Shown one piece after another: positions 1,314 through 11,084 of a stretch of DNA of 64,000 nucleotides. The DNA is taken from the NCBI GenBank assembly GCA_042565725.1, contig JBHORK010000004.1, positions 2,750 to 66,749 on the forward strand, given 5' to 3'. The position numbers and the translations under genes are program-made. The notes under the pieces were generated by a model, which had not been told where the DNA came from, ran no database searches, and was given only the letters and a program-made list of their open reading frames with translations. The stretch is from Verrucomicrobiota bacterium. GTDB taxonomy: Bacteria > Verrucomicrobiota > Kiritimatiellia > UBA8416 > JBHORK01. Within the stretch, counting starts at the first letter, position 1, and every line of letters begins with the position of its first letter.

Positions 1314-1540
1314 GGTGCTTTTAGTCTCTATGTTTTTTTGTTCAAGTTCGTTTTCGAACGACTGACAGGAATTTGATTTTTGCTTATCATATACACAGCC
1401 TCCGTATAGGGCAAATCATTCTGAATGAATCAAGGCTATGGTGCGGATGCGTCCTTCAAGCTTCTGTTACAAACTCGTTACACACAAAAACCGATTCTTA
1501 TGCGATCATATTATTAGAACAAGGAAGGATCAGGTTGCTG

Positions 1541-4500
1541 ATGAATAGCGGAATAAAAACAAAACGGGTTGCCAAATTAATTATTGCTCTGTCGATTTGC
1601 TTTGTCTTGTTTTTCGGTATAAAGATTTTCAGAGAGTATTTCTACGGCGACCCTGACGCGCCGTATTATATTGTTCCGGAAGAATGGCATGCGTTTCTTT
1701 CCGTAACTGACGAAAAGACCAATGTTGATTTGCAGTGGAATCTTGATGTCCTGAAGATTGATCCCGGGCATGTTGCCATGGTCCAGCTTTTTCCGATCGG
1801 CACGGTTTTCCGTGAAGTTAAAATGAATGAAGAAGATGTCCTGCCGGTTAAAAGGTCCGGATGGTTTTGTGTTGAGATTAAAAGGCCGGGCACATACTCC
1901 GTATCCGCCGGGGTTGATGTTCATACGGAAGAAAAAGAGAACGTTTCTTCCGTAAAATTCAAGAAACCTTTCTTTATTAATTCGGTTATTCACGTTGATT
2001 CAGATGATGTATTGGAATTTGCGGTTGATGATGCGGTCGGTTCGGTAACGGGTGATGAAGAAGGAACGCATGGCGCTATTCATGTGGGATTGCTGAGAGA
2101 TTTGACGGTTACATGGCGGGCGCTCCGTGAAAGAGTTGAACAGGTGGGGATACCGTCAATAAAACCGTCAATCGCGTGGACTGTCAGCGACAGCACAATT
2201 TCCGCTAATGCGCTTTTAGATGTTACGATTATGGGCGGCTCCAGCGAGATGGTTTCCATGATACTTCCTTTTGGTGCTGACAGGGTAGATGTCAGGAGCG
2301 GGGTTATGCGTGACTGGCGGAAGACCGGGGACAGACTCGATATTTATTTTACCGAGAAAGTCAGTGGTCAATTTAAGATCAGTTTGTCATTTGATATTCC
2401 CAGGACGGGTGATGTTGCGGAATGTTCCATGTTTAAAGTTGAAGGCGGCAGGCTGGATGCCGGCGGCTGGATGTTGGCTGTAAATGACACCAGCGGGCTG
2501 ATGCTTGAAAACAATATTGCCGGCCTGCAGGCGGCAACTGATCTGGATGTTCCTGCGGATGTAATAAGTCTTGTAAAAGGGAAGCCTTTGTTTTTTTACA
2601 GGGTCCTTAATCGTAATGCCGGGCCGGTATTTGATGTTGTTACCAAGAAGCCTTTTCCTGTTGTTGATACCATAGCTGATCGGCTCGATATATTTACGGT
2701 TGTTCATAATGGCGGTGAGGAAATAAGCAGGTTGTCTTACCGTATAAGAAATAACAACAAGCAATTCCTGCGCGTTAAAATGCCTGAAGAGTTCAGGTTG
2801 ATATATGTTGAAGTTGATAATGAGCGCTGCAGCATTTCAGAGGAAGACGGGGTTTTGCTTGTTCCCCTGGTTAGATCTATTCAGACAATGGGCGGGCTTG
2901 TTCCGTTTCCTGTGGAAATAGTTTATTGCCGGCAGGGGATGACGATCTCCAATGGTGATAAGTTCAGGCTGGATCTCCCCGAGCTTCCTGAAGTGCCTGT
3001 CGCGCATGTAACCGCAAGAGTATTTTACCCCGGCGAGATGAGCATCAATTCGTATAGAAGTTCATTAACAAGGGTGGATAAATTAAGTATTGAGGATGCG
3101 GTATCATTCCGGGATGCGCCCCTGATAGTAACAAACGCGGCTTATGATGTGTCCGGTTGGGTCAACGATGCTTGGGTATATAACAATTATCAGGTTGGTT
3201 ATGATGCTTACAGGAAGAACGACCTTGAATCCGCCGAGCAGTATTTCAGAAAAACACAGTTACTGTCTCCGCAGGGTGCGCCTATATCAAAAACAACCAA
3301 AGATCTGCTTGGTAATCTCATGGTTGGCAGAGGAGAGATCAAAGGGAAGGATAAGCTTGAGAAGGCGAAAATGCTTTCTATTAAAGGTCAGCTCGCGAGT
3401 GATGTGGATGATATTCAGACTCAGCAGGGAAAGCTGATTCAGGTCGGCCTTGCCAATCTGAAAGAAGGAGATGAGGAGCTTGGCGCTGAGCTGTTGAGGG
3501 AGGCTGAAGATCTCGGAAAAGAAATTTCTCGAAGGGGTGGTTCCGCATTGCGACAGAAAGCTGTAAGCAGAACTTACGAGCGTCAGCTGCAGGACATTGA
3601 AGATCAGCGCAGATATAACAGGGATCTCAATAAAAAGCTTGAGAAGCTTCAGAAGCAGGCGCAGACGGTTCTTGCGAATGCGCCAAATGATAAAGGCGAA
3701 AAAGCGCGCTCGTTTGCGCAAGGTGTCATTGTTGCGGCTGAGGAAGAGAATGTTTCGCTTACTGAAATGCCCGTTGCCGATATTGCATGGAGCGACAAAA
3801 GTGCTAAGAAGAATTATTCTAAACGCGCTGAAGCGTCACAGGTAAGAGGCAGGTTTGCCAGATCAGGCAAATCTTCATGGAGATCCGATATTAAAAAAAG
3901 GAGTAAGAATGAATCTTTGAAGGAGAAGAACAAAGAACTCCGTAAAAAGGTGTCGATCCTTGATAGAGCACTTTCTGTAATGAACAGTGATACGGCAAAC
4001 AAGCCGGTGCAGATTGATTCTTTGAGTGTAAGAAAGTCTGTCGCGAGTCTTAAGGATGATGTCGCGGATGCCAAAAGCCGTTTTCAGGAGCTGGCCAGTG
4101 GTTCTGCCGGCGTTAATGATTATATGAATGCGGAAAAAGAGCTGAGCATGCTTGAGCAGAAAGCACAGGGCGGTAAGGTCTCCTTTGGGGCTTTGGATGA
4201 TACTGTTCAGCAGGAACTTTCTGAACTTGAAGAAGAAGTTAAGGGTTTGAAGAATAAAATTGCGGGTCAGCGCGCCGCGCAGGAGAAACAGGACGTTATT
4301 GAAATTAATATTGGTAAAATCGTAAACACTGATAATCCCAATGCGACAAAAGCATTTAAGCAATTCATGGGCACAAATTATTGGGGATCGCAATTGGATC
4401 AATCCGGTTTTTGGATAGATGGCCAAAATCTGGTGGTTACGAATGCCTGCAACATTCCTGCGGAATTTAATCAGGTGGTAGAGAAAATTGCTGATAACCG

Positions 4501-5020
4501 CGGCAACGCGGTTTCGGTTGCCGGCAATACTATTGATCTGGATGTAAATAATGTTCCCGTTGTTAATAACTGGTTTTCAAATACAACGGCTACAGGGAAG
4601 AAATACGCGATTCTTGATGAAGCCCAGTACAGGACCATTGTCCAGGCAAACGCGGCATTGTCCGGTGAGAGTCTTGATTCGGAGCGCATGGAAAAGAAGG
4701 AAGTAATACTCGGAACACCCAATGGTGTTAACGGCATCAACTTTACATTATCTGATGCGGACAATGATGCTAATGGATTGTTGATTGAAGGGAGCGAGAT
4801 CAATATTTCGCATGACCAGTATTACGCTGTTGCTGATGGTAAGAAAGTTTCGGTTTTAAAGGCAGGCGAGCTGCATAACTGGCAGGAAGAAGGAAGCGAT
4901 ATAAACATGGAGGTAAGCATTCCTTACAAGCTGGATATTCCGCAGGCAGGTGTTCGGGTTTGTTTTGAAAAAACACTTTTGTCGGCCGGTGAATCACCGG
5001 ATATAGAAATTGGATTTTAG
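1541..5020 (+). CDS. Large membrane-anchored protein of unknown function (beta-sandwich repeats, TPR-like and coiled-coil insert); paralogue of 5542-7506
   Basis: Long ORF; likely start ATG 1541 (MNSGIKTKR) after AGGAAGG. N-terminal hydrophobic helix. Shares motifs with the next gene (YRIRNNNKQFLRVKMP vs YNVRNHRNQFLRIELP; FPVEIVY; C-terminal EKTLL/EKILV). Confidence 0.8.
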   Translation: MNSGIKTKRVAKLIIALSICFVLFFGIKIFREYFYGDPDAPYYIVPEEWHAFLSVTDEKTNVDLQWNLDVLKIDPGHVAMVQLFPIGTVFREVKMNEEDVLPVKRSGWFCVEIKRPGTYSVSAGVDVHTEEKENVSSVKFKKPFFINSVIHVDSDDVLEFAVDDAVGSVTGDEEGTHGAIHVGLLRDLTVTWRALRERVEQVGIPSIKPSIAWTVSDSTISANALLDVTIMGGSSEMVSMILPFGADRVDVRSGVMRDWRKTGDRLDIYFTEKVSGQFKISLSFDIPRTGDVAECSMFKVEGGRLDAGGWMLAVNDTSGLMLENNIAGLQAATDLDVPADVISLVKGKPLFFYRVLNRNAGPVFDVVTKKPFPVVDTIADRLDIFTVVHNGGEEISRLSYRIRNNNKQFLRVKMPEEFRLIYVEVDNERCSISEEDGVLLVPLVRSIQTMGGLVPFPVEIVYCRQGMTISNGDKFRLDLPELPEVPVAHVTARVFYPGEMSINSYRSSLTRVDKLSIEDAVSFRDAPLIVTNAAYDVSGWVNDAWVYNNYQVGYDAYRKNDLESAEQYFRKTQLLSPQGAPISKTTKDLLGNLMVGRGEIKGKDKLEKAKMLSIKGQLASDVDDIQTQQGKLIQVGLANLKEGDEELGAELLREAEDLGKEISRRGGSALRQKAVSRTYERQLQDIEDQRRYNRDLNKKLEKLQKQAQTVLANAPNDKGEKARSFAQGVIVAAEEENVSLTEMPVADIAWSDKSAKKNYSKRAEASQVRGRFARSGKSSWRSDIKKRSKNESLKEKNKELRKKVSILDRALSVMNSDTANKPVQIDSLSVRKSVASLKDDVADAKSRFQELASGSAGVNDYMNAEKELSMLEQKAQGGKVSFGALDDTVQQELSELEEEVKGLKNKIAGQRAAQEKQDVIEINIGKIVNTDNPNATKAFKQFMGTNYWGSQLDQSGFWIDGQNLVVTNACNIPAEFNQVVEKIADNRGNAVSVAGNTIDLDVNNVPVVNNWFSNTTATGKKYAILDEAQYRTIVQANAALSGESLDSERMEKKEVILGTPNGVNGINFTLSDADNDANGLLIEGSEINISHDQYYAVADGKKVSVLKAGELHNWQEEGSDINMEVSIPYKLDIPQAGVRVCFEKTLLSAGESPDIEIGF

Positions 5021-5067
5021 CAAAGGTAGTGGAATAAAATGCATGAAAAAATGAAGAGAAGAAGAAA

Positions 5068-5400
5068 ACCACGGAGGTCACAGAGATACGGAGAAGAAAT
5101 AGAGGAGGTTGCATGAATTTGGCGCAGATATTGCATCCTCTAAATATTAAATTGCACGTATATATAGAAATATCTGCGCCAAATTCATGCAACGATTGAT
5201 GCCTGGAGAAAGGCGGAGGGAAAATAAGATATGATTAAAAGTATGTATTATGTAAGGGATGCTGATGTTTTTTCGGTCTTTTTTTCTGCCTCCTCTTTAC
5301 AACCCGTTGCGGAATTTTCTGTCCGGATACTTCCGGCAGAAAATAACGCAACACTCTTTTCTTTTTTATCTCTTCTCCGTGACTCCGTGTTCTCCGTGGT
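5068..5400. repeat. Intergenic element bounded by 30-bp imperfect inverted repeats built from 9-mer CACGGAGnn units
   Basis: 5068-5097 ACCACGGAGGTCACAGAGATACGGAGAAGA vs the reverse complement of 5371-5400, ACCACGGAGAACACGGAGTCACGGAGAAGA (25/30 identical). Confidence 0.8.
5108..5193. repeat. 86-bp MITE-like element with a perfect 25-bp inverted repeat
   Basis: GTTGCATGAATTTGGCGCAGATATT (5108-5132) is the exact reverse complement of 5169-5193, with a 36-nt AT-rich spacer. Confidence 0.85.
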
Positions 5401-5541
5401 TAAATCTTTTAAAGAACGTGGAGGGTGGGTTTTAAAAGAGGGACAAGGGTGGTTCTTGCGTAACATGTTCCAGGACATGATGTTCTGCAGATGACAGAAT
5501 GGAATTCGTTGCAAAACGTTAACACAATAAAGGAGGTAGTC

Positions 5542-7506
5542 ATGAACGAGGAACGTAAAGAAGAAGAGCTGGTGCCGCAGGATGAAGAGATTCAACCGGA
5601 GGCAGAACAAATTGAAGAGACAGAACAAGTTGAAAAGGTAGAAGAAGTAACGGATGAGGATGAGAATAAAGAAGGGCCTGTAGCAGAAGAAATGACGACA
5701 GAATTGCAGGCTGAAGAAAAGCCGGTTGAAAAAAAGCCGCGCAAGCCGAGAGGTTCTGTTTTTCCGTGGCTGATGATGATTGTCATGATGGCGGCTGTTG
5801 TATCGGGATTCTGGTACACAAAAGAATATTGGCTGAGCTTGTTGAACCCCGCTCCATGGGATGCGCCTTATATAATAACAGCAACGGAGTATGACGGAAC
5901 AGAGGTAAGCGAAGAAGGCGCAAACTTCAAGGCCACGTATCATATAGATATAGAAAGCAAGGATACGTGGAAAAAGATACCTTTAATTCCTGCAACTGTT
6001 GCGATTATTGATTCGGACCTTCCTTCTGACGCGTATTTGGTATTGTCAGATGGGCATTACACTATGCTTACACGTAAGAATGGGAAAATAGATGTTTCTA
6101 TAACATTTTCTGTTGCAGTCTCTGAAGTTGGGTCGGGACACAAAGTAGCTTTTGCGAGGGTGCCTTCGGTCACATGCGTTTTAGAGGCAATACTGCCGGA
6201 AGAAGGGCTTGATATAAAGGTTACAGGCGCGCAGTCAACGGATATAAAACCTGAGAATGGTACCACAAGCGTGTCCGCGGCACTGCCGGATGGAACGCCT
6301 ATAGAATTGGCATGGGAAAAAGCAATCCCTGAACTGCCTGAGGGACCTTCTCAGTTTCATAGTTATACAAAAACCCTGATATCGGTTGCTGAAGGCATAG
6401 TGCATGGTGAAACAAGAATAGATTTCAGTATTCTTCATACACCTACGTATGTGCTGGAACTTAATGTGCCTGAAAACGTGAGTGTTCTGGAAGTTACTGG
6501 TGCGGATATAAGGGACTGGCGTCTTGAAAATGAAAAGATGACTGTGCATTTTGAGAAAGAAGTTATCGGGCTATATAACATGAACATAAAATACGAAATG
6601 CCCGCTAACGTTGAAGGAGGCAAGATTAACGTTCCGATGATAACAGGTTCCGGTGTTAAGAGCGAAAAAGGTGAGATAGGCATTGTTGCGCTTACCAATA
6701 TTGAGATCAAGAACGGCGAAGTTTCTAACGCGCATCTTATAGATGTTAAGGATCTTCCTTCCGATATAATAGGCATGACATCTCAACCCGTTCTGCTGGC
6801 GTATCGTTACGCGAACCCTGAGTTTGATGTGACTCTGGATGTTAACAAGCCGAACGATGTTGACGTATTGCTTGCTATAATTGACAGAGCGAACGTTACT
6901 ATCATGCAGACTCTTGATGGAAAGCGCGTAACACGCGCTGTATACAATGTGAGAAACCACAGGAACCAGTTCCTGAGAATAGAGCTTCCTGAAGGAGCTG
7001 AGCTCTGGAGCGCATCTGTTGCCGGCAGGGTCAGTCAGCCGGTAAAAGATGAAAGCGGCAGAATACTTTTGCCCCTTGTCCGCTCACAGGGCGGCAGCAG
7101 GATGTCGGCATTTCCAGTCGAAATCGTCTATGCCGAGGAAGGTGAAAAGCCTGATGAGCGCGGGCGTGGTATCGCAAAGGTAACACTGCCTTCATGCAGT
7201 GAACCGATAATGCATCTTATGGTTTCGCTGTATGTTCCTGAACAGGGAAAGTATGATGATTTTGAAGGAACGATGCATAAGGTGGAGAACTTCTCTGCTG
7301 TCAGGCGCGAGGTGCCTGTGCGGGTTATAAATAATGTCAATCAGATGCGGCAGGTAGCTATTCGGAAGCCTGTTCCGGGCGGTAACGGGCGCACGGATAT
7401 TGATGTTCAGATTCCTTTAAGCGGTAAATCCTTTTTACTGGAAAAGATTCTTGTTATAAAAGATCAACAGTGGTTTTCTTATAGTTATAGGAACCTTGAT
7501 AAATAG
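5542..7506 (+). CDS. Membrane-anchored protein of unknown function; shorter paralogue of 1541-5020
   Basis: AGGAGG RBS at 5531-5536 before ATG 5542. Acidic N-tail, one TM helix (FPWLMMIVMMAAVVSGFWY), then beta-rich domains shared with the upstream gene. Confidence 0.85.
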   Translation: MNEERKEEELVPQDEEIQPEAEQIEETEQVEKVEEVTDEDENKEGPVAEEMTTELQAEEKPVEKKPRKPRGSVFPWLMMIVMMAAVVSGFWYTKEYWLSLLNPAPWDAPYIITATEYDGTEVSEEGANFKATYHIDIESKDTWKKIPLIPATVAIIDSDLPSDAYLVLSDGHYTMLTRKNGKIDVSITFSVAVSEVGSGHKVAFARVPSVTCVLEAILPEEGLDIKVTGAQSTDIKPENGTTSVSAALPDGTPIELAWEKAIPELPEGPSQFHSYTKTLISVAEGIVHGETRIDFSILHTPTYVLELNVPENVSVLEVTGADIRDWRLENEKMTVHFEKEVIGLYNMNIKYEMPANVEGGKINVPMITGSGVKSEKGEIGIVALTNIEIKNGEVSNAHLIDVKDLPSDIIGMTSQPVLLAYRYANPEFDVTLDVNKPNDVDVLLAIIDRANVTIMQTLDGKRVTRAVYNVRNHRNQFLRIELPEGAELWSASVAGRVSQPVKDESGRILLPLVRSQGGSRMSAFPVEIVYAEEGEKPDERGRGIAKVTLPSCSEPIMHLMVSLYVPEQGKYDDFEGTMHKVENFSAVRREVPVRVINNVNQMRQVAIRKPVPGGNGRTDIDVQIPLSGKSFLLEKILVIKDQQWFSYSYRNLDK

Positions 7507-7590
7507 TCGACACTGAGCAGAATGGTATTGTTCAAATGTTAAGACCTGGCAATCTTATGTGTTTCAGTGCATAGGGAAATGAGGTTTAAG

Positions 7591-7633
7591 AATTGAATAT
7601 CCAATATCCAACAAGGAATATCCAACATCCAAG
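7591..7633 (+). repeat. Heptamer-periodic ATATCCA array with CCAACAAGGAA core
   Basis: AATTGAATATCCAATATCCAACAAGGAATATCCAACATCCAAGG. The 25-mer 7601-7625 is identical to 8569-8593. Confidence 0.85.
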
Positions 7634-7788
7634 GAGGGAAGCAGTGAGTGCTGTCAATATCTTGTGCTGCAGGTGCTTGCAAGGTTCTCTTTTGATAGTA
7701 TGAATATTCGTGATACAGAGGTTCAGTCATTAGCTTTTGAATGAAATTAAGAAATGTTTCAACGCCGACTAATAAAGGAATTATTGAA

Positions 7789-8496
7789 ATGGCAAAGCGT
7801 ACTATACTTGTTGTTGAAGATGATGCATCGATCAGAAGAGGCATTGTTGACGCGCTTCAGTTCGCGGAATATAACGTGATAGAAGCTGATAATGGCAATG
7901 ACGGCATGCGTATGGCGGTTCGGGGCGGATATGATCTGCTCCTTCTTGACCTGGTTTTACCCGGGCCGGGCGGGTTGGAAATACTTGCTGAAGTACGCAC
8001 TTCTCGACCGACGCTTCCCGTGATTATACTTACCGCTAAAGGCGCTGAATCCGACCGTGTCAAAGGCTTGAAACTTGGCGCGGATGATTACGTTGCCAAG
8101 CCGTTCAGTGTAAAGGAGCTTATGGCTCGGATAGAAGCAGTTATGCGGCGTTCACCGGAAAGGCCTGTTGACTTGAATGAGGTGGTTTTTAATGGGGGAG
8201 TCGCCGATCTGAAACGCGCTGAAATAAGATTCAAGAATGGAGACCGCGCGGAATTGTCCGAACGCGAGATGGAGCTGTTACGTTATCTTGCGGGGAACAG
8301 GGGCAGGGCGATTTCAAGAGAAGAAATACTCAGGCGTGTTTGGCGTATTGATCCGGACAGAATAGAAACCCGCACCATAGATATGCATATAGCGCGGCTA
8401 AGAGAAAAACTCGGAGATGATTCTGACAAACCGCATATCCTTTGCACGGTACGGGGTAAGGGATATATGTTTATGCCGTTAAAGAGTAAAAAATGA
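7789..8496 (+). CDS. OmpR/PhoB-family response regulator
   Basis: Receiver domain (ILVVEDD, LLLLDLVLP, ILTAK, DDYVAKPF) plus winged helix (RTIDMHIARLREKL, TVRGKGY). Likely start ATG 7789. Confidence 0.95.
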   Translation: MAKRTILVVEDDASIRRGIVDALQFAEYNVIEADNGNDGMRMAVRGGYDLLLLDLVLPGPGGLEILAEVRTSRPTLPVIILTAKGAESDRVKGLKLGADDYVAKPFSVKELMARIEAVMRRSPERPVDLNEVVFNGGVADLKRAEIRFKNGDRAELSEREMELLRYLAGNRGRAISREEILRRVWRIDPDRIETRTIDMHIARLREKLGDDSDKPHILCTVRGKGYMFMPLKSKK

Positions 8497-8568
8497 ATAT
8501 TGTTCAGAAGTTGACGCTTGGGGCTTTCAGAGCACGAGCTGATTTTGGGTTGAAAGAAAGGTGAACAC

Positions 8569-8697
8569 CCAATATCCAACAAGGAATATCCAAGGAAGAA
8601 GTGGATGAGGAAAGTGAATGAATGTCACAAAGGCCTGCGATTTGCTTCTCTTAGCGCACTTAGGAGTTGGGAGTTCCTTGTTGGCTGTTGGATGTTG
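8569..8697. repeat. Inverted pair of heptamer arrays (CCAACAAGGAA ... TTCCTTGTTGG)
   Basis: Core at 8576-8586 and its exact reverse complement at 8674-8684, each within 7-nt periodic flanks. Confidence 0.8.
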
Positions 8698-8771
8698 AGA
8701 AGGTGTCGCCAACGGGGACAGTTTCCCGGAACGGTGATGATCATGTGTTAACATTTGAACGTTATCAAAAA

Positions 8772-10838
8772 ATGAAAAGACATTGGCATAGCTGGTTATT
8801 ATTTACGGTATTTGTGGTTGCGGTTCTCGCGGCTATGGGCTGGTTAAGCAGTAAAATGGTAACTTTGCAGGAGGCGAACATCAAGGCCCAGCAGGATGCG
8901 GCCTTTGAAGAGTCCGTTCGGCTTGCACTCTGGCGGATGGACGCGGAGATTTCTCCCATGATACTGGAGGAAAGTTCCCGGCCGTATTACGATTACTGGG
9001 CATATAATTATAACGGTCAGATTATTGAGAGAGAAGAGCTTGGGAATAATGACTTTAATATCAGGCCAAACGCTTCCCCTTTGCTTGCGCAGACTAATGC
9101 TGCAGGTGTTAATATCTATTTTCAGACTGAGCTGAATGACAAAGAGAAGAACGCATCCCAAATAGAGTCGCCCCAGGTTCTTGACACGATAACCAATCTG
9201 GCTGTTGGTAAAGATATTGACTTAAGAGATAACTGGAGACAGCTTGATACTCTTAACAGGACTATAAACGCGGAAGATTTAAATAATGCTTTGCAGGTTG
9301 CGAATGCAACCGAAGAAATAAATGCTGATAATGAAACTGAAGACCTTAGTCGGCAGGTTACAAGCGTTGGGGTTGTATCAGGTGAAAAGAGGCAGCAACT
9401 TGCCAACAATGATTATACCCTGGATGCTCAAAAACAGGGGAATATGCCTGTTCAGGGAAGGGGAATGCAACAGGCGGCGCAGGTTGATCAGTCGAGTTAT
9501 CTTCAGCGCAGATCTAAGAATGAAGAGTCGAAAAAGAAAGTGCAACAGACAAAATCACGTTTTTACGATGAAATATCGTTGGCAAATGCAGCTCGCCAGG
9601 AGCCAGTTTCAAGAAGTGATAAATCCAAGTCAAATGCCTCGAAAGAAATCAGAGGGAAAGCAGGTAAACTAAGGAAATCAAGTTGGGGAAAAGGCGAATC
9701 AAAGGAGGCGGAGCAGATCATTGCGCAACAGCCGGTTGCGCGGCAGATTAAATATTCTGATGACCAGTCGGTAAAGGTCAAAGAGGATGTTATGCATCCT
9801 GTATGGGTAAATGATCTTCTTATCCTCGCGCGGACAGTCAGGATTAACGGTAAATCAACTATCCAGGGTGTCTGGCTTAACTGGGAAAATATAAAGAGCC
9901 AATTACTTGATGAAATAAAGGATCTGTTTCCTGAAGCTGAACTTGTAGCCGCTGATCCTTTAAAAGAAACAGATAAGTCCAGGTTGATGGCCGCTATTCC
10001 TGTAAAGCTTATTCCCGGTAATGCGATTAATCTGCCGGTTATACCTGTGTCATCTTACAAGCTTCCTCTTGCGATAGCCTGGGTGTTTGTGCTTATAGGT
10101 GTATTTGCTGTAGCGATATTGCTTCTCGGTACATCTGTGCTGAGTGAGCGGAGGGGCGCATTTGTTTCGGCAGTGACACATGAGCTGAGAACACCTCTGA
10201 CTACTTTTCGAATGTACACCGAGATGCTGGCGGAAGGTATGGTCAAAAACGAAGAAAAGAGAGATGAATATCTTCAGACTTTACATAAGGAAAGTAATCG
10301 GCTTGGACATTTAGTGGAGAACGTTCTTGCTTATTCAAGACTTGAGAATGGTTCTGTAAGCAGTTCGCTCGAGAAAATAAGAATTAATGATATAATAGAG
10401 CGGGTTCAGGAAACTTTATCGCGCCGTGCCGAAGAAGCCGGCATGCGGTTGGTGATAGATATATCTGACGAAAATCGTTATGCGGAAAGTCATACCAGTC
10501 TTATGACCGTTGAGCAGATTCTGTTTAATCTTGTCGATAATTCCTGCAAGTATGCGTCATCGGCAGATGATAAAAGGATTCATTTTGCTGTGACTGTAGA
10601 AGGAGAATCAGTGATTATAAGAATCTGTGATCATGGTAAAGGCTTGCAGAAGACGGATCGTCAGATAGCGTTCAAGCCATTTCGTAAGTCTGCGGAGATG
10701 GCTGCCGAAAGCGCGCCCGGGGTGGGGCTGGGGCTTGCGTTATGCAAGCGGCTTGCTGCGCAGATTGATGCAAGGATTTATTATGAGGAGCATAAGAGCT
10801 ATGGAGCCTGCTTCACTCTCCGCCTGCCTTTAAGCTGA
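8772..10838 (+). CDS. Sensor histidine kinase (HisKA + HATPase_c) with a large periplasmic region
   Basis: H-box VTHELRTPLT, N-box QILFNLVDNSCKY, DHGKG and GVGLGL G-boxes, and two TM segments. Likely start ATG 8772 (MKRHWHSW). Confidence 0.95.
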   Translation: MKRHWHSWLLFTVFVVAVLAAMGWLSSKMVTLQEANIKAQQDAAFEESVRLALWRMDAEISPMILEESSRPYYDYWAYNYNGQIIEREELGNNDFNIRPNASPLLAQTNAAGVNIYFQTELNDKEKNASQIESPQVLDTITNLAVGKDIDLRDNWRQLDTLNRTINAEDLNNALQVANATEEINADNETEDLSRQVTSVGVVSGEKRQQLANNDYTLDAQKQGNMPVQGRGMQQAAQVDQSSYLQRRSKNEESKKKVQQTKSRFYDEISLANAARQEPVSRSDKSKSNASKEIRGKAGKLRKSSWGKGESKEAEQIIAQQPVARQIKYSDDQSVKVKEDVMHPVWVNDLLILARTVRINGKSTIQGVWLNWENIKSQLLDEIKDLFPEAELVAADPLKETDKSRLMAAIPVKLIPGNAINLPVIPVSSYKLPLAIAWVFVLIGVFAVAILLLGTSVLSERRGAFVSAVTHELRTPLTTFRMYTEMLAEGMVKNEEKRDEYLQTLHKESNRLGHLVENVLAYSRLENGSVSSSLEKIRINDIIERVQETLSRRAEEAGMRLVIDISDENRYAESHTSLMTVEQILFNLVDNSCKYASSADDKRIHFAVTVEGESVIIRICDHGKGLQKTDRQIAFKPFRKSAEMAAESAPGVGLGLALCKRLAAQIDARIYYEEHKSYGACFTLRLPLS

Positions 10839-10877: not shown

Positions 10878-11048
10878 GCAGAAAGAATTTCGTTCGAAAA
10901 TCGAACCCGCATATTACCGCTTCTGCTGCGTTCCTGCTCCCCTAAAATACCAAAGTATGTGTCGGGTCGCAGCGCCTTGCATAAGCGGCAATCTGCTGAT
11001 CCGATTTTCGAATCCTTCGACAAGCTCAGGAAACGAAATTCTTTCTGC
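10878..11048. mobile_element. MITE-like palindromic element with a nested REP-like insert in the right arm
   Basis: Exact 17-bp terminal IR GCAGAAAGAATTTCGTT (10878-10894) / 11032-11048, continued by CGAAAATCG / CGATTTTCG. The right arm is interrupted by TCCTTCGACAAGCTCAGGA (11013-11031). Related left ends occur at ~15768-15832 and ~50557-50640. Confidence 0.7.
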
Positions 11049-11055
11049 GGTTTAC

Positions 11056-11084
11056 ACCCCGCTCCCGCGGGGAGGGGTTTGTTT
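11056..11084 (+). terminator. Possible intrinsic terminator between the convergent kinase and nagB genes
   Basis: GC-rich hairpin ACCCCGCTCCCGCGGGGAGGGGT followed by TTGTTT. Confidence 0.35.

Follow-up and report, generated by a model that had tools for sequence, protein, structure and literature searches.

What is the role of two related envelope proteins that match no described family and are encoded directly ahead of a two-component system? The question is raised by four co-oriented plus-strand genes at positions 1541-10838 of a 64,000-nucleotide stretch from a Verrucomicrobiota bacterium (GenBank assembly GCA_042565725.1, contig JBHORK010000004.1, positions 2,750 to 66,749), which is referred to as a whole as the window. 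In order, the genes encode two proteins named here g1 and g2, an OmpR-type response regulator and a histidine kinase (Table 1). The initial annotation, made from the letters alone, had described such a unit, and the open reading frame (ORF) calls agree with it; Response_reg and Trans_reg_C domains are found in the third gene product, and HisKA and HATPase_c domains in the fourth. The reading favored here, with a probability of roughly 55%, is that an autoregulated two-component system is encoded together with its principal target, a paralogous periplasmic pair that belongs to a large undescribed family and acts as an envelope scaffold or connector. The superfamily to which the protein pair belongs is undescribed; its regulation follows a familiar scheme.

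The paralogous pair

The g1 and g2 sequences align by BLASTP with E=1e-27 and 24% identity across 522 residues. This similarity is far beyond chance, and by sequence the two proteins are true paralogues. They share the motifs YRIRNNNKQFLRVKMP in g1 and YNVRNHRNQFLRIELP in g2, VPLVRS and LPLVRS, FPVEIVY in both, and, at the C-terminus, IPQAGVRVCFEKTLL and IPLSGKSFLLEKILV. All motifs quoted in the initial annotation are present, although its "WLLAVN" really reads WMLAVN. The N-terminal transmembrane (TM) anchor proposed for each protein is seen both in hydropathy plots and in the predicted structures as a single hydrophobic helix, and these anchors support the proposed orientation towards the periplasm. 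In one relative (locus L001) g1 and g2 have signal-peptide-like N-termini in place of the anchor.

The larger size of g1 is due to a single internal segment. A g1 profile matches g2 proteins in two pieces, at profile positions ~30-530 and ~1140-1165, which proves that residues ~535-1135 of g1 are an insertion. In both structure models the last two strands (FEKTLL in g1, FLLEKILV in g2) come after a loop, which is a 35-residue disordered linker in g2 and the ~600-residue insert in g1. According to the model, the insert is made of a helical bundle resembling tetratricopeptide repeats or a coiled coil (residues 537-915), an alpha/beta domain (919-1041) and a beta domain (1051-1113). When the same relative is compared, identity is 44% for g1 versus 67% for g2, and g1 evolves faster.

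Relatives of g2 were collected with a word-seeded search, which gave 72, and by scanning of genomes, which gave 169, the best 80 being kept. They occur in Lentisphaerales/Victivallaceae, in Planctomycetota (Phycisphaerae, Planctomycetia and Brocadiia) and in Myxococcota, where the cultured species Nannocystis punicea and Paraliomyxa miuraensis are among the carriers. In all 73 loci with enough upstream DNA (73/73), a g1-like gene is situated directly upstream of g2 on the same strand, in one locus fused to it. The distance from the g1 stop codon to the g2 match has a median of 19 nt across these loci, the exceptions being two loci with an extra gene of STN repeats between g1 and g2 and one with a gap of ~1 kb. 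Two complete modules are joined in one chain of 1,400-1,750 residues in at least 24 independent cluster representatives. Upon clustering the ORFs of 86 loci, no conserved neighbour was found besides g1, g2, the regulator and the kinase. Judged from gene order, g1-g2 is an obligate two-gene cassette. The linkage of the homologues to each other, on which the initial annotation had made its proposal of a joint system depend, is thus established, and together with the natural fusions it supports, without proving, a heteromeric g1:g2 complex.

In two planctomycete loci the extra gene encodes 4-6 repeated FecR_C/STN-like units (L041, 5061-7648; L056, 3002-5965); that of L056 scores 53.6 bits against STN.

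The two-component system and the promoter box

The receiver domain of the regulator has a visible acidic DD pair and the motif LLLLDLVLPG. Its best NCBIfam models, PhoB and RpaB, both score below the equivalog cut-offs, and the regulator is therefore orthologous to no named one. The H-box of the kinase, SAVTHELRTPLTT, is invariant in 4 orthologues. Hydropathy places TM segments at residues 44-62 and 459-477 of the 723-residue frame, enclosing a periplasmic domain of ~400 residues, at 28-425 of the 688-residue form. Alignment with three orthologues shows that this domain has conserved ends and a variable, low-complexity middle; no Pfam model matched it.

The order g1-g2-regulator-kinase is found in the window and in loci L006, L007, L008/L019, L015, L020 and L021, and it is rearranged to regulator-kinase-g1-g2 in L016/L022. 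At least 8 genomes thus retain the linkage, in two gene orders, and its survival of rearrangement argues for function. The coupling of the pair to the two-component system that the initial annotation had suggested therefore holds within the Lentisphaerales-type clade, but it is no property of the family as a whole. The kinase-regulator pair is missing from loci at ≤50% identity (L001, L005, L024), and all Planctomycetota and Myxococcota loci, as well as some from Lentisphaerae, have g1-g2 without it. The sensor domain of the kinase occurs in 7 of 60 genomes of the same order, 4 of the 7 having g2 orthologues. A 602-residue ORF after g2 in L004 was considered as a counterpart of the kinase and rejected, as it is unrelated to it. 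The most divergent pair, with 32% identity (L002, 4320-6841, and L003), has an extracytoplasmic function (ECF) sigma factor and a Ser/Thr protein kinase co-oriented upstream, and these add a third kind of signaller to those linked with the family.

Upstream of g1 lies a direct repeat with the consensus GTTACA-N5-GTTACAC. Promoters activated by OmpR/PhoB proteins classically have an 11-bp direct repeat overlapping the -35 position. As in the "pho box" promoters of PhoB, a repeat of 11-bp period takes the place of the -35 element; the sequence GTTACA-N5-GTTACAC, however, could not be assigned to a described regulator. A TGCGAT(N)AT element follows the second repeat at a fixed spacing of 21 bp in the orthologous promoters. 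When 11 promoters were aligned, from genomes whose g2 proteins are 51-67% identical, GTTACAnAnnnGTTACACA and the -10 element were found to be invariant or nearly so, with unconserved flanks. The genome of the window (2.96 Mb) has 2 exact sites against about 0.33 expected, and 8 related genomes together have 12 sites against 0 for a reversed-pattern control.

The distribution of the box follows that of the regulator. Wherever the regulator heads the unit or stands without g1-g2, the box precedes the regulator gene: in L022 it is present upstream of both the regulator gene and g1, and in L099, L100 and L101 it lies upstream of the regulator gene of a kinase-regulator pair that has no adjacent g1-g2. 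In genome G015, a divergent g1/g2-type pair (L103, contig C77 of that genome, 1-9129, minus strand), of 1158 and at least 1839 residues, has the box in its promoter, and the kinase-regulator pair (L100) is on a different contig. No box was found in L001, L005, L018, L024 or genome G043, all of which carry g1-g2 without the kinase-regulator pair. Because the box is invariant at g1 promoters and is also found at regulator promoters, g1-g2 is, on this comparative evidence, very probably the main conserved target of the adjacent regulator. The boxes upstream of the regulator gene itself suggest autoregulation. The proposal that expression of the pair is coupled to the adjacent regulator is supported by these conserved OmpR-type boxes. 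With the regulator, its exact binding site and a small regulon all predicted, the function becomes approachable, as a reporter can be used to look for inducing conditions.

The other exact GTTACA-N5-GTTACA site in the genome of the window is on its contig C77 (minus strand, 39375), in a promoter with its own -10-like element and ribosome-binding site. It lies upstream of genes for a MoxR-type AAA+ ATPase, a DUF58-like protein, a BatA-like protein (676 residues) and proteins of 728 and 939 residues. The same operon directly follows the kinase in L007 (14775-21872); a check of its upstream region for the box found none. Further copies of the box are present in L104 at 6456 (-), L105 at 945 (+), L107 at 31 (+), L108 at 322 (-), L004 at 3312 (+), L099 at 8351 (+) and L100 at 7272 (-). 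They stand ahead of genes for small uncharacterised proteins, membrane-bound or secreted, which are possible additional members of the regulon.

Superfamily, fold and possible function

The initial annotation could place neither g1 nor g2 in a characterised family, and this stands. Neither protein has a Pfam or NCBIfam match at E≤1, and neither matches a PDB sequence in single-sequence or family-profile searches. The PADLOC models of anti-phage defence do not match g1, g2 or the kinase, and give weak receiver-domain cross-hits only with the regulator. No Pfam match at E≤1, VIT and Ribophorin_I included, was obtained for 26 g2 homologues, nor was anything found with the C-terminal domain of g1 alone in Pfam (9 orthologues) or in a PDB profile search. 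Homologues are named in databases only as "hypothetical protein". Weak matches to UCH_UBL1, MDY2_C and SLATT fall below the cut-offs and were rejected. By sequence there is thus no confident full-length match to a known family, and the likenesses described below are at the level of the fold.

The pair belongs to a much larger set of proteins. An exhaustive profile search, counted as cluster representatives at 50% identity, finds the module shared by g1 and g2 in 6,959 representatives at E≤1e-3 and in 2,796 at E≤1e-30. These include single-module, two-module and multi-module proteins, the last of ~2,100-2,600 residues; six large representatives that were scanned have no Pfam domain and, in NCBIfam, one weak match below the cut-off. 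The module is present in most genomes of the order and in Planctomycetota, Lentisphaerota, Verrucomicrobiota, Myxococcota and Acidobacteriota. By these searches the four-gene unit is no isolated oddity but a branch of an unannotated superfamily of very large size, and its roughly 7,000 cluster representatives point to a considerable gap in annotation.

Across the 60 genomes of the order, g2 orthologues occur in 5, and a paralogue of ~2,200 residues in roughly 35. In this giant protein the module occurs four times, with TM hairpins and acidic cytoplasmic linkers between the copies. In the genome of the window its gene is on contig C27 (L010, L012, L013) and is cut by the contig end. In 13 of 17 further genomes, as in genome G016, the giant is encoded directly after two genes, one for an ECF sigma factor and one for a zf-HC2 anti-sigma factor that bears vWF_A/VWA/YfbK_C domains. 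In three more the anti-sigma-VWA gene is beside the giant, two of these contigs ending before any sigma gene is visible. The loci in question are L014 (5088-15748) and L109-L125. Such ECF sigma/anti-sigma-VWA (YfbK-like) units resemble the four-gene unit in that the same module is tied to extracytoplasmic signalling; they differ in the signalling device and in that a single giant chain with internal TM hairpins takes the place of the two genes. From gene order, then, the module is wired repeatedly to extracytoplasmic signalling devices, of three kinds in all, which suggests that it helps bacteria with unusual envelopes to survey or remodel them.

Structures of g1 and g2 were predicted with AlphaFold2 (AF2) from family alignments, and their folds were compared with the PDB using Foldseek. 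The g2 model has a predicted local distance difference test score (pLDDT) of 77.9, exceeding 90 over most of the beta core; the g1 model has a pLDDT of 82 and a predicted TM-score (pTM) of 0.63. Both are all-beta stacks following a TM helix. The best match of either model is ribophorin I/Ost1, with E=1.5e-8 for g2 and 4e-10 for g1 and a probability of 1.0, aligned over about 415-470 columns, nearly the whole lumenal part. Integrin legs, M1-aminopeptidase N-domains and the VIT domain of ITIH1 come next. The last (6fpz/6fpy) is matched by both models with a probability of 1.0 over about 250-270 columns.

Ost1, or ribophorin I, is a non-catalytic subunit of the eukaryotic oligosaccharyltransferase. 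Like g1 and g2, it has membrane-anchored tandem beta-sandwich domains on the non-cytoplasmic side. Its anchor is C-terminal to these domains, as in other members of the superfamily, whereas that of g1 and g2 is N-terminal; the domain arrangement also differs, and there is no sequence relationship. The Ribophorin I/Ost1 profile PF04597 has 0 matches in the whole genome at E≤10 and none for g1 or g2 at E≤1, and membership of that family at the sequence level was rejected on this result. No STT3/PglB-type partner is situated nearby and no glycosyltransferase is conserved near the pair, a genome-wide search for STT3/PglB not having been made. A 2016 survey found no convincing prokaryotic homologues of Ost1 (PMC4973528). 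The VIT profile PF08487 likewise gives no Pfam match at E≤1 for g1 or g2. In ITIH proteins, VIT and VWA domains are within one chain. The giant paralogues encoded beside a VWA-domain anti-sigma factor echo this VIT-VWA partnership, although the VIT-like and VWA parts would here lie on different polypeptides, and no VWA protein is adjacent to the pair in the window. The likeness to ribophorin I and VIT raises, without settling, the question of whether these eukaryotic domains have bacterial relatives.

The DUF4139/DUF4140 proteins (TIGR02231, "mucoidy inhibitor MuiA-like") are likewise uncharacterised bacterial beta-sandwich proteins, presumably with a coiled coil between beta domains, as in g1. 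Membership of g1 and g2 was rejected, as PF13598 misses both and the hhalign probability for the g2 family is 0.2%. Contig C160 does encode a true DUF4139 protein (6433-8307; 136 bits; ~590 residues in a 624-codon frame), which has a coiled coil and no sequence kinship to g1 or g2.

In the reading preferred here, the kinase would sense an envelope or periplasmic cue through its ~400-residue periplasmic domain and phosphorylate the regulator. The latter would bind GTTACA-N5-GTTACAC, overlapping the -35 position and 21 bp upstream of the TGCGATnAT -10 element; the direction of the effect would be activation of g1-g2 transcription, which would probably read on into the regulator and kinase genes. 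Each of g1 and g2 would be held in the inner membrane by its one N-terminal helix and display a beta-sandwich stack, homologous to that of its partner and of Ost1/ribophorin-I-like, VIT-like fold, in the periplasm, where the two would pair, most likely as a pseudo-symmetric heterodimer. The insert of g1, a helical stalk followed by the alpha/beta and beta domains, may reach a partner in the peptidoglycan or outer-membrane layer, and the induced complex would serve as an envelope scaffold or connector.

Several points weigh against this reading. Binding of the regulator to the box is a prediction from comparative footprinting, and the connector role is a guess from architecture. TM-scores of the fold matches are low, at 0.11-0.32 (0.12-0.30 for g1 against Ost1), and scores in this range of 0.1-0.3 indicate that the models share the type and order of domains with these proteins but no rigid assembly. 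In most of the family no two-component system is encoded next to the pair, whose core function would therefore be independent of one. Conversely, genomes G053, G015 and G029 have the kinase-regulator pair without adjacent g1-g2. Dispersed repeats with hairpins fill all three spacers of the unit and may interrupt or attenuate read-through to the regulator and kinase genes. Finally, likeness of the window g1 to periplasmic docking domains is not significant: the protein and 8 close orthologues have no Pfam match to Secretin_N (PF03958) or STN (PF07660), and hhalign aligns it in a plausible register, with a probability of 1.8%, to the L059 segment just downstream of Pfam-confirmed Secretin_N domains. 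The likeness is kept as a lead.

The main rival explanation, possible though on the unlikely side, is that g1 and g2 are accessory sensors that bind the periplasmic domain of the kinase and set its activity, with induction by the regulator closing a feedback loop. YycH and YycI act on WalK, and CpxP on CpxA. In the WalRK-YycHI and CpxAR-CpxP units, too, single-pass periplasmic proteins are encoded together with a HisKA kinase and an OmpR-family regulator, and the single-pass anchoring of g1 and g2 is like that of YycH and YycI; g1 and g2 are, however, unrelated in sequence to YycH, YycI and CpxP and occur widely without a two-component system. The recurrence of the superfamily beside transmembrane signallers with large extracytoplasmic domains (the kinase-regulator pair, the L002/L003 genes and the anti-sigma-VWA genes) would fit an accessory sensor, as would the resemblance of the modules to the VIT domain of ITIH1 (probability 1.0), a domain that shares a chain with VWA. 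Yet the pair is kept in at least 60 Planctomycetota and Myxococcota loci with no signalling gene nearby, and the kinase-regulator pair persists in the three genomes just mentioned without an adjacent g1-g2, so that neither strictly needs the other.

A broader and distinctly speculative proposal, which is considered doubtful, is that the Ost1/VIT-like module defines an unrecognised large bacterial superfamily of paired periplasmic proteins that form the monitored element of envelope-surveillance devices. If this were true, the paired modules, whether from two genes, in a fused chain or in a four-module giant, would build a trans-periplasmic assembly. The state of this assembly would be read by whatever signaller is wired to it, be it an anti-sigma factor that bears VWA, a Ser/Thr kinase accompanied by an ECF sigma factor, or a histidine kinase. 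Such an arrangement would be the bacterial equivalent, in split form, of the VIT-VWA partnership of eukaryotes, and the module a bacterial relative of the ribophorin I fold.

It is rather improbable that g1 and g2 are inner-membrane parts of a trans-envelope secretion or uptake machine, with a secretin or a TonB-dependent outer-membrane protein as the docking site for the distal domains of g1. STN and Secretin_N domains of known systems dock in the periplasm to outer-membrane proteins or build rings. They are found within the insert of planctomycete g1 orthologues (Secretin_N with 125.7 bits in L059, STN with 30.8 bits in L066), and the FecR_C/STN-repeat genes between g1 and g2 in some loci, together with the beta-alpha-beta-beta-alpha-beta topology predicted by the AF2 model for residues 919-998 of the window g1, point in the same direction. 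However, the neighbourhood of the pair has no conserved secretin, ATPase, TonB-dependent receptor or further machine part, the distal domains are wholly lacking from the g1 of Myxococcota, and the window g1 has no significant STN or Secretin_N match. A chance neighbourhood of the four genes, in which the two-component system would regulate something else and g1-g2 would be unrelated housekeeping envelope proteins, is very unlikely: although most homologues of the pair lack a two-component system and the spacers in the window are long and repeat-filled, the linkage is found in at least 8 genomes and two gene orders, and the same rare direct repeat occurs at g1 promoters, at regulator promoters and at the unlinked paralogous pair in G015.

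Gene boundaries, spacers and flanking elements

The g1 start is placed at ATG 1541, for which the conserved promoter and ribosome-binding site argue. For g2, whose frame is open from 5491 (671 residues), the most likely start is ATG 5542, giving the 654-residue form of the database record. The regulator start is set at ATG 7789, which gives 235 residues, as in its orthologues. The kinase start is taken as ATG 8772; the alternative TTG 8667, which would lengthen the frame to 723 residues, falls within the arm of an inverted repeat. Coordinates of all features are collected in Table 1.

Table 1. Positions in the window of the four genes, their domains, the promoter elements and the spacer repeats
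Feature	Position	Strand	Description and basis
Candidate response-regulator box GTTACAAACTC GTTACACAC	1466-1485	+	Direct repeat, 11-bp period, overlaps -35 position; stretch reads GTTACAAACTCGTTACACAC
Extended -10-like element TGCGATCAT	1501-1509	+	Conserved; 21 bp after second repeat
g1 ribosome-binding site AAGGAAGGA	1521-1529	+	Follows -10-like element, precedes ATG 1541
g1	1541-5020	+	1159 aa; larger paralogue; N-terminally anchored periplasmic protein; ORF call
g1 TM anchor, aa 12-30	1574-1630	+	Hydropathy; helix 10-35 in AF2 model
g1 all-beta module, aa 44-512	1670-3076	+	Homologous to g2 core, BLASTP E=1e-27
g1-specific insert, aa ~535-1135	3143-4945	+	Split profile alignment; secondary structure of model
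g1 terminal beta-strands, aa 1138-1158, motif FEKTLLSAGESPDIE	4952-5014	+	Shared with g2 C-terminus
Dispersed repeat element, g1-g2 spacer	5067-5401		35-nt imperfect terminal inverted repeats
Inner hairpin of g1-g2 spacer element	5108-5193		Perfect, 25-nt
g2	5542-7506	+	654 aa; smaller paralogue; N-terminally anchored periplasmic protein; ORF call
g2 TM helix, aa 89-107 of 671-aa frame	5755-5811	+	Model and hydropathy; preceded by acidic cytoplasmic tail
g2 all-beta module	5869-7284	+	AF2 model
g2 terminal strands, after disordered linker	7426-7491	+	AF2 model
Short dispersed repeat, g2-regulator spacer	7589-7640		~45-bp unit; about 80 blastn matches genome-wide
Regulator, OmpR/PhoB-family	7789-8496	+	235 aa from MAKRT; Pfam domains and orthologue lengths
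Regulator receiver domain	7804-8136	+	Response_reg PF00072, 3.3e-28, full length 1-111 of 111
Regulator winged helix	8245-8472	+	Trans_reg_C PF00486, 2.2e-24, positions 3-77 of 77
Inverted-repeat element, regulator-kinase spacer	8564-8696		30-nt arms, covers TTG 8667; 63 blastn matches genome-wide
Sensor histidine kinase	8772-10838	+	688 aa; Pfam domains, orthologue alignment, hydropathy
Kinase HisKA domain	10152-10352	+	PF00512, 1.2e-19
Kinase HATPase_c domain	10509-10832	+	PF02518, 2.3e-19

The internal spacers of the unit measure 521, 282 and 275 bp. In relatives they are about 10-140 bp, with overlapping regulator and kinase genes, and the g1-g2 gaps are about 15-140 bp. As the spacers are compact in relatives, the repeats are insertions into the operon. 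The element in the g1-g2 spacer (~335-500 bp) has a copy on contig C159, 85.6% identical over 499 bp, and dozens of partial copies elsewhere. Long antisense ORFs, for example at 5248-5943 (minus strand), were treated as artefacts of the repeat-rich spacer.

The unit is flanked by a divergent gene at 189-1313 and by convergent genes from 11332 onward, all on the minus strand. Just after the kinase there is another inverted-repeat element (10878-11048) with 17-nt perfect outer arms and 34-nt inner arms, followed by a terminator-like hairpin at 11062-11074.

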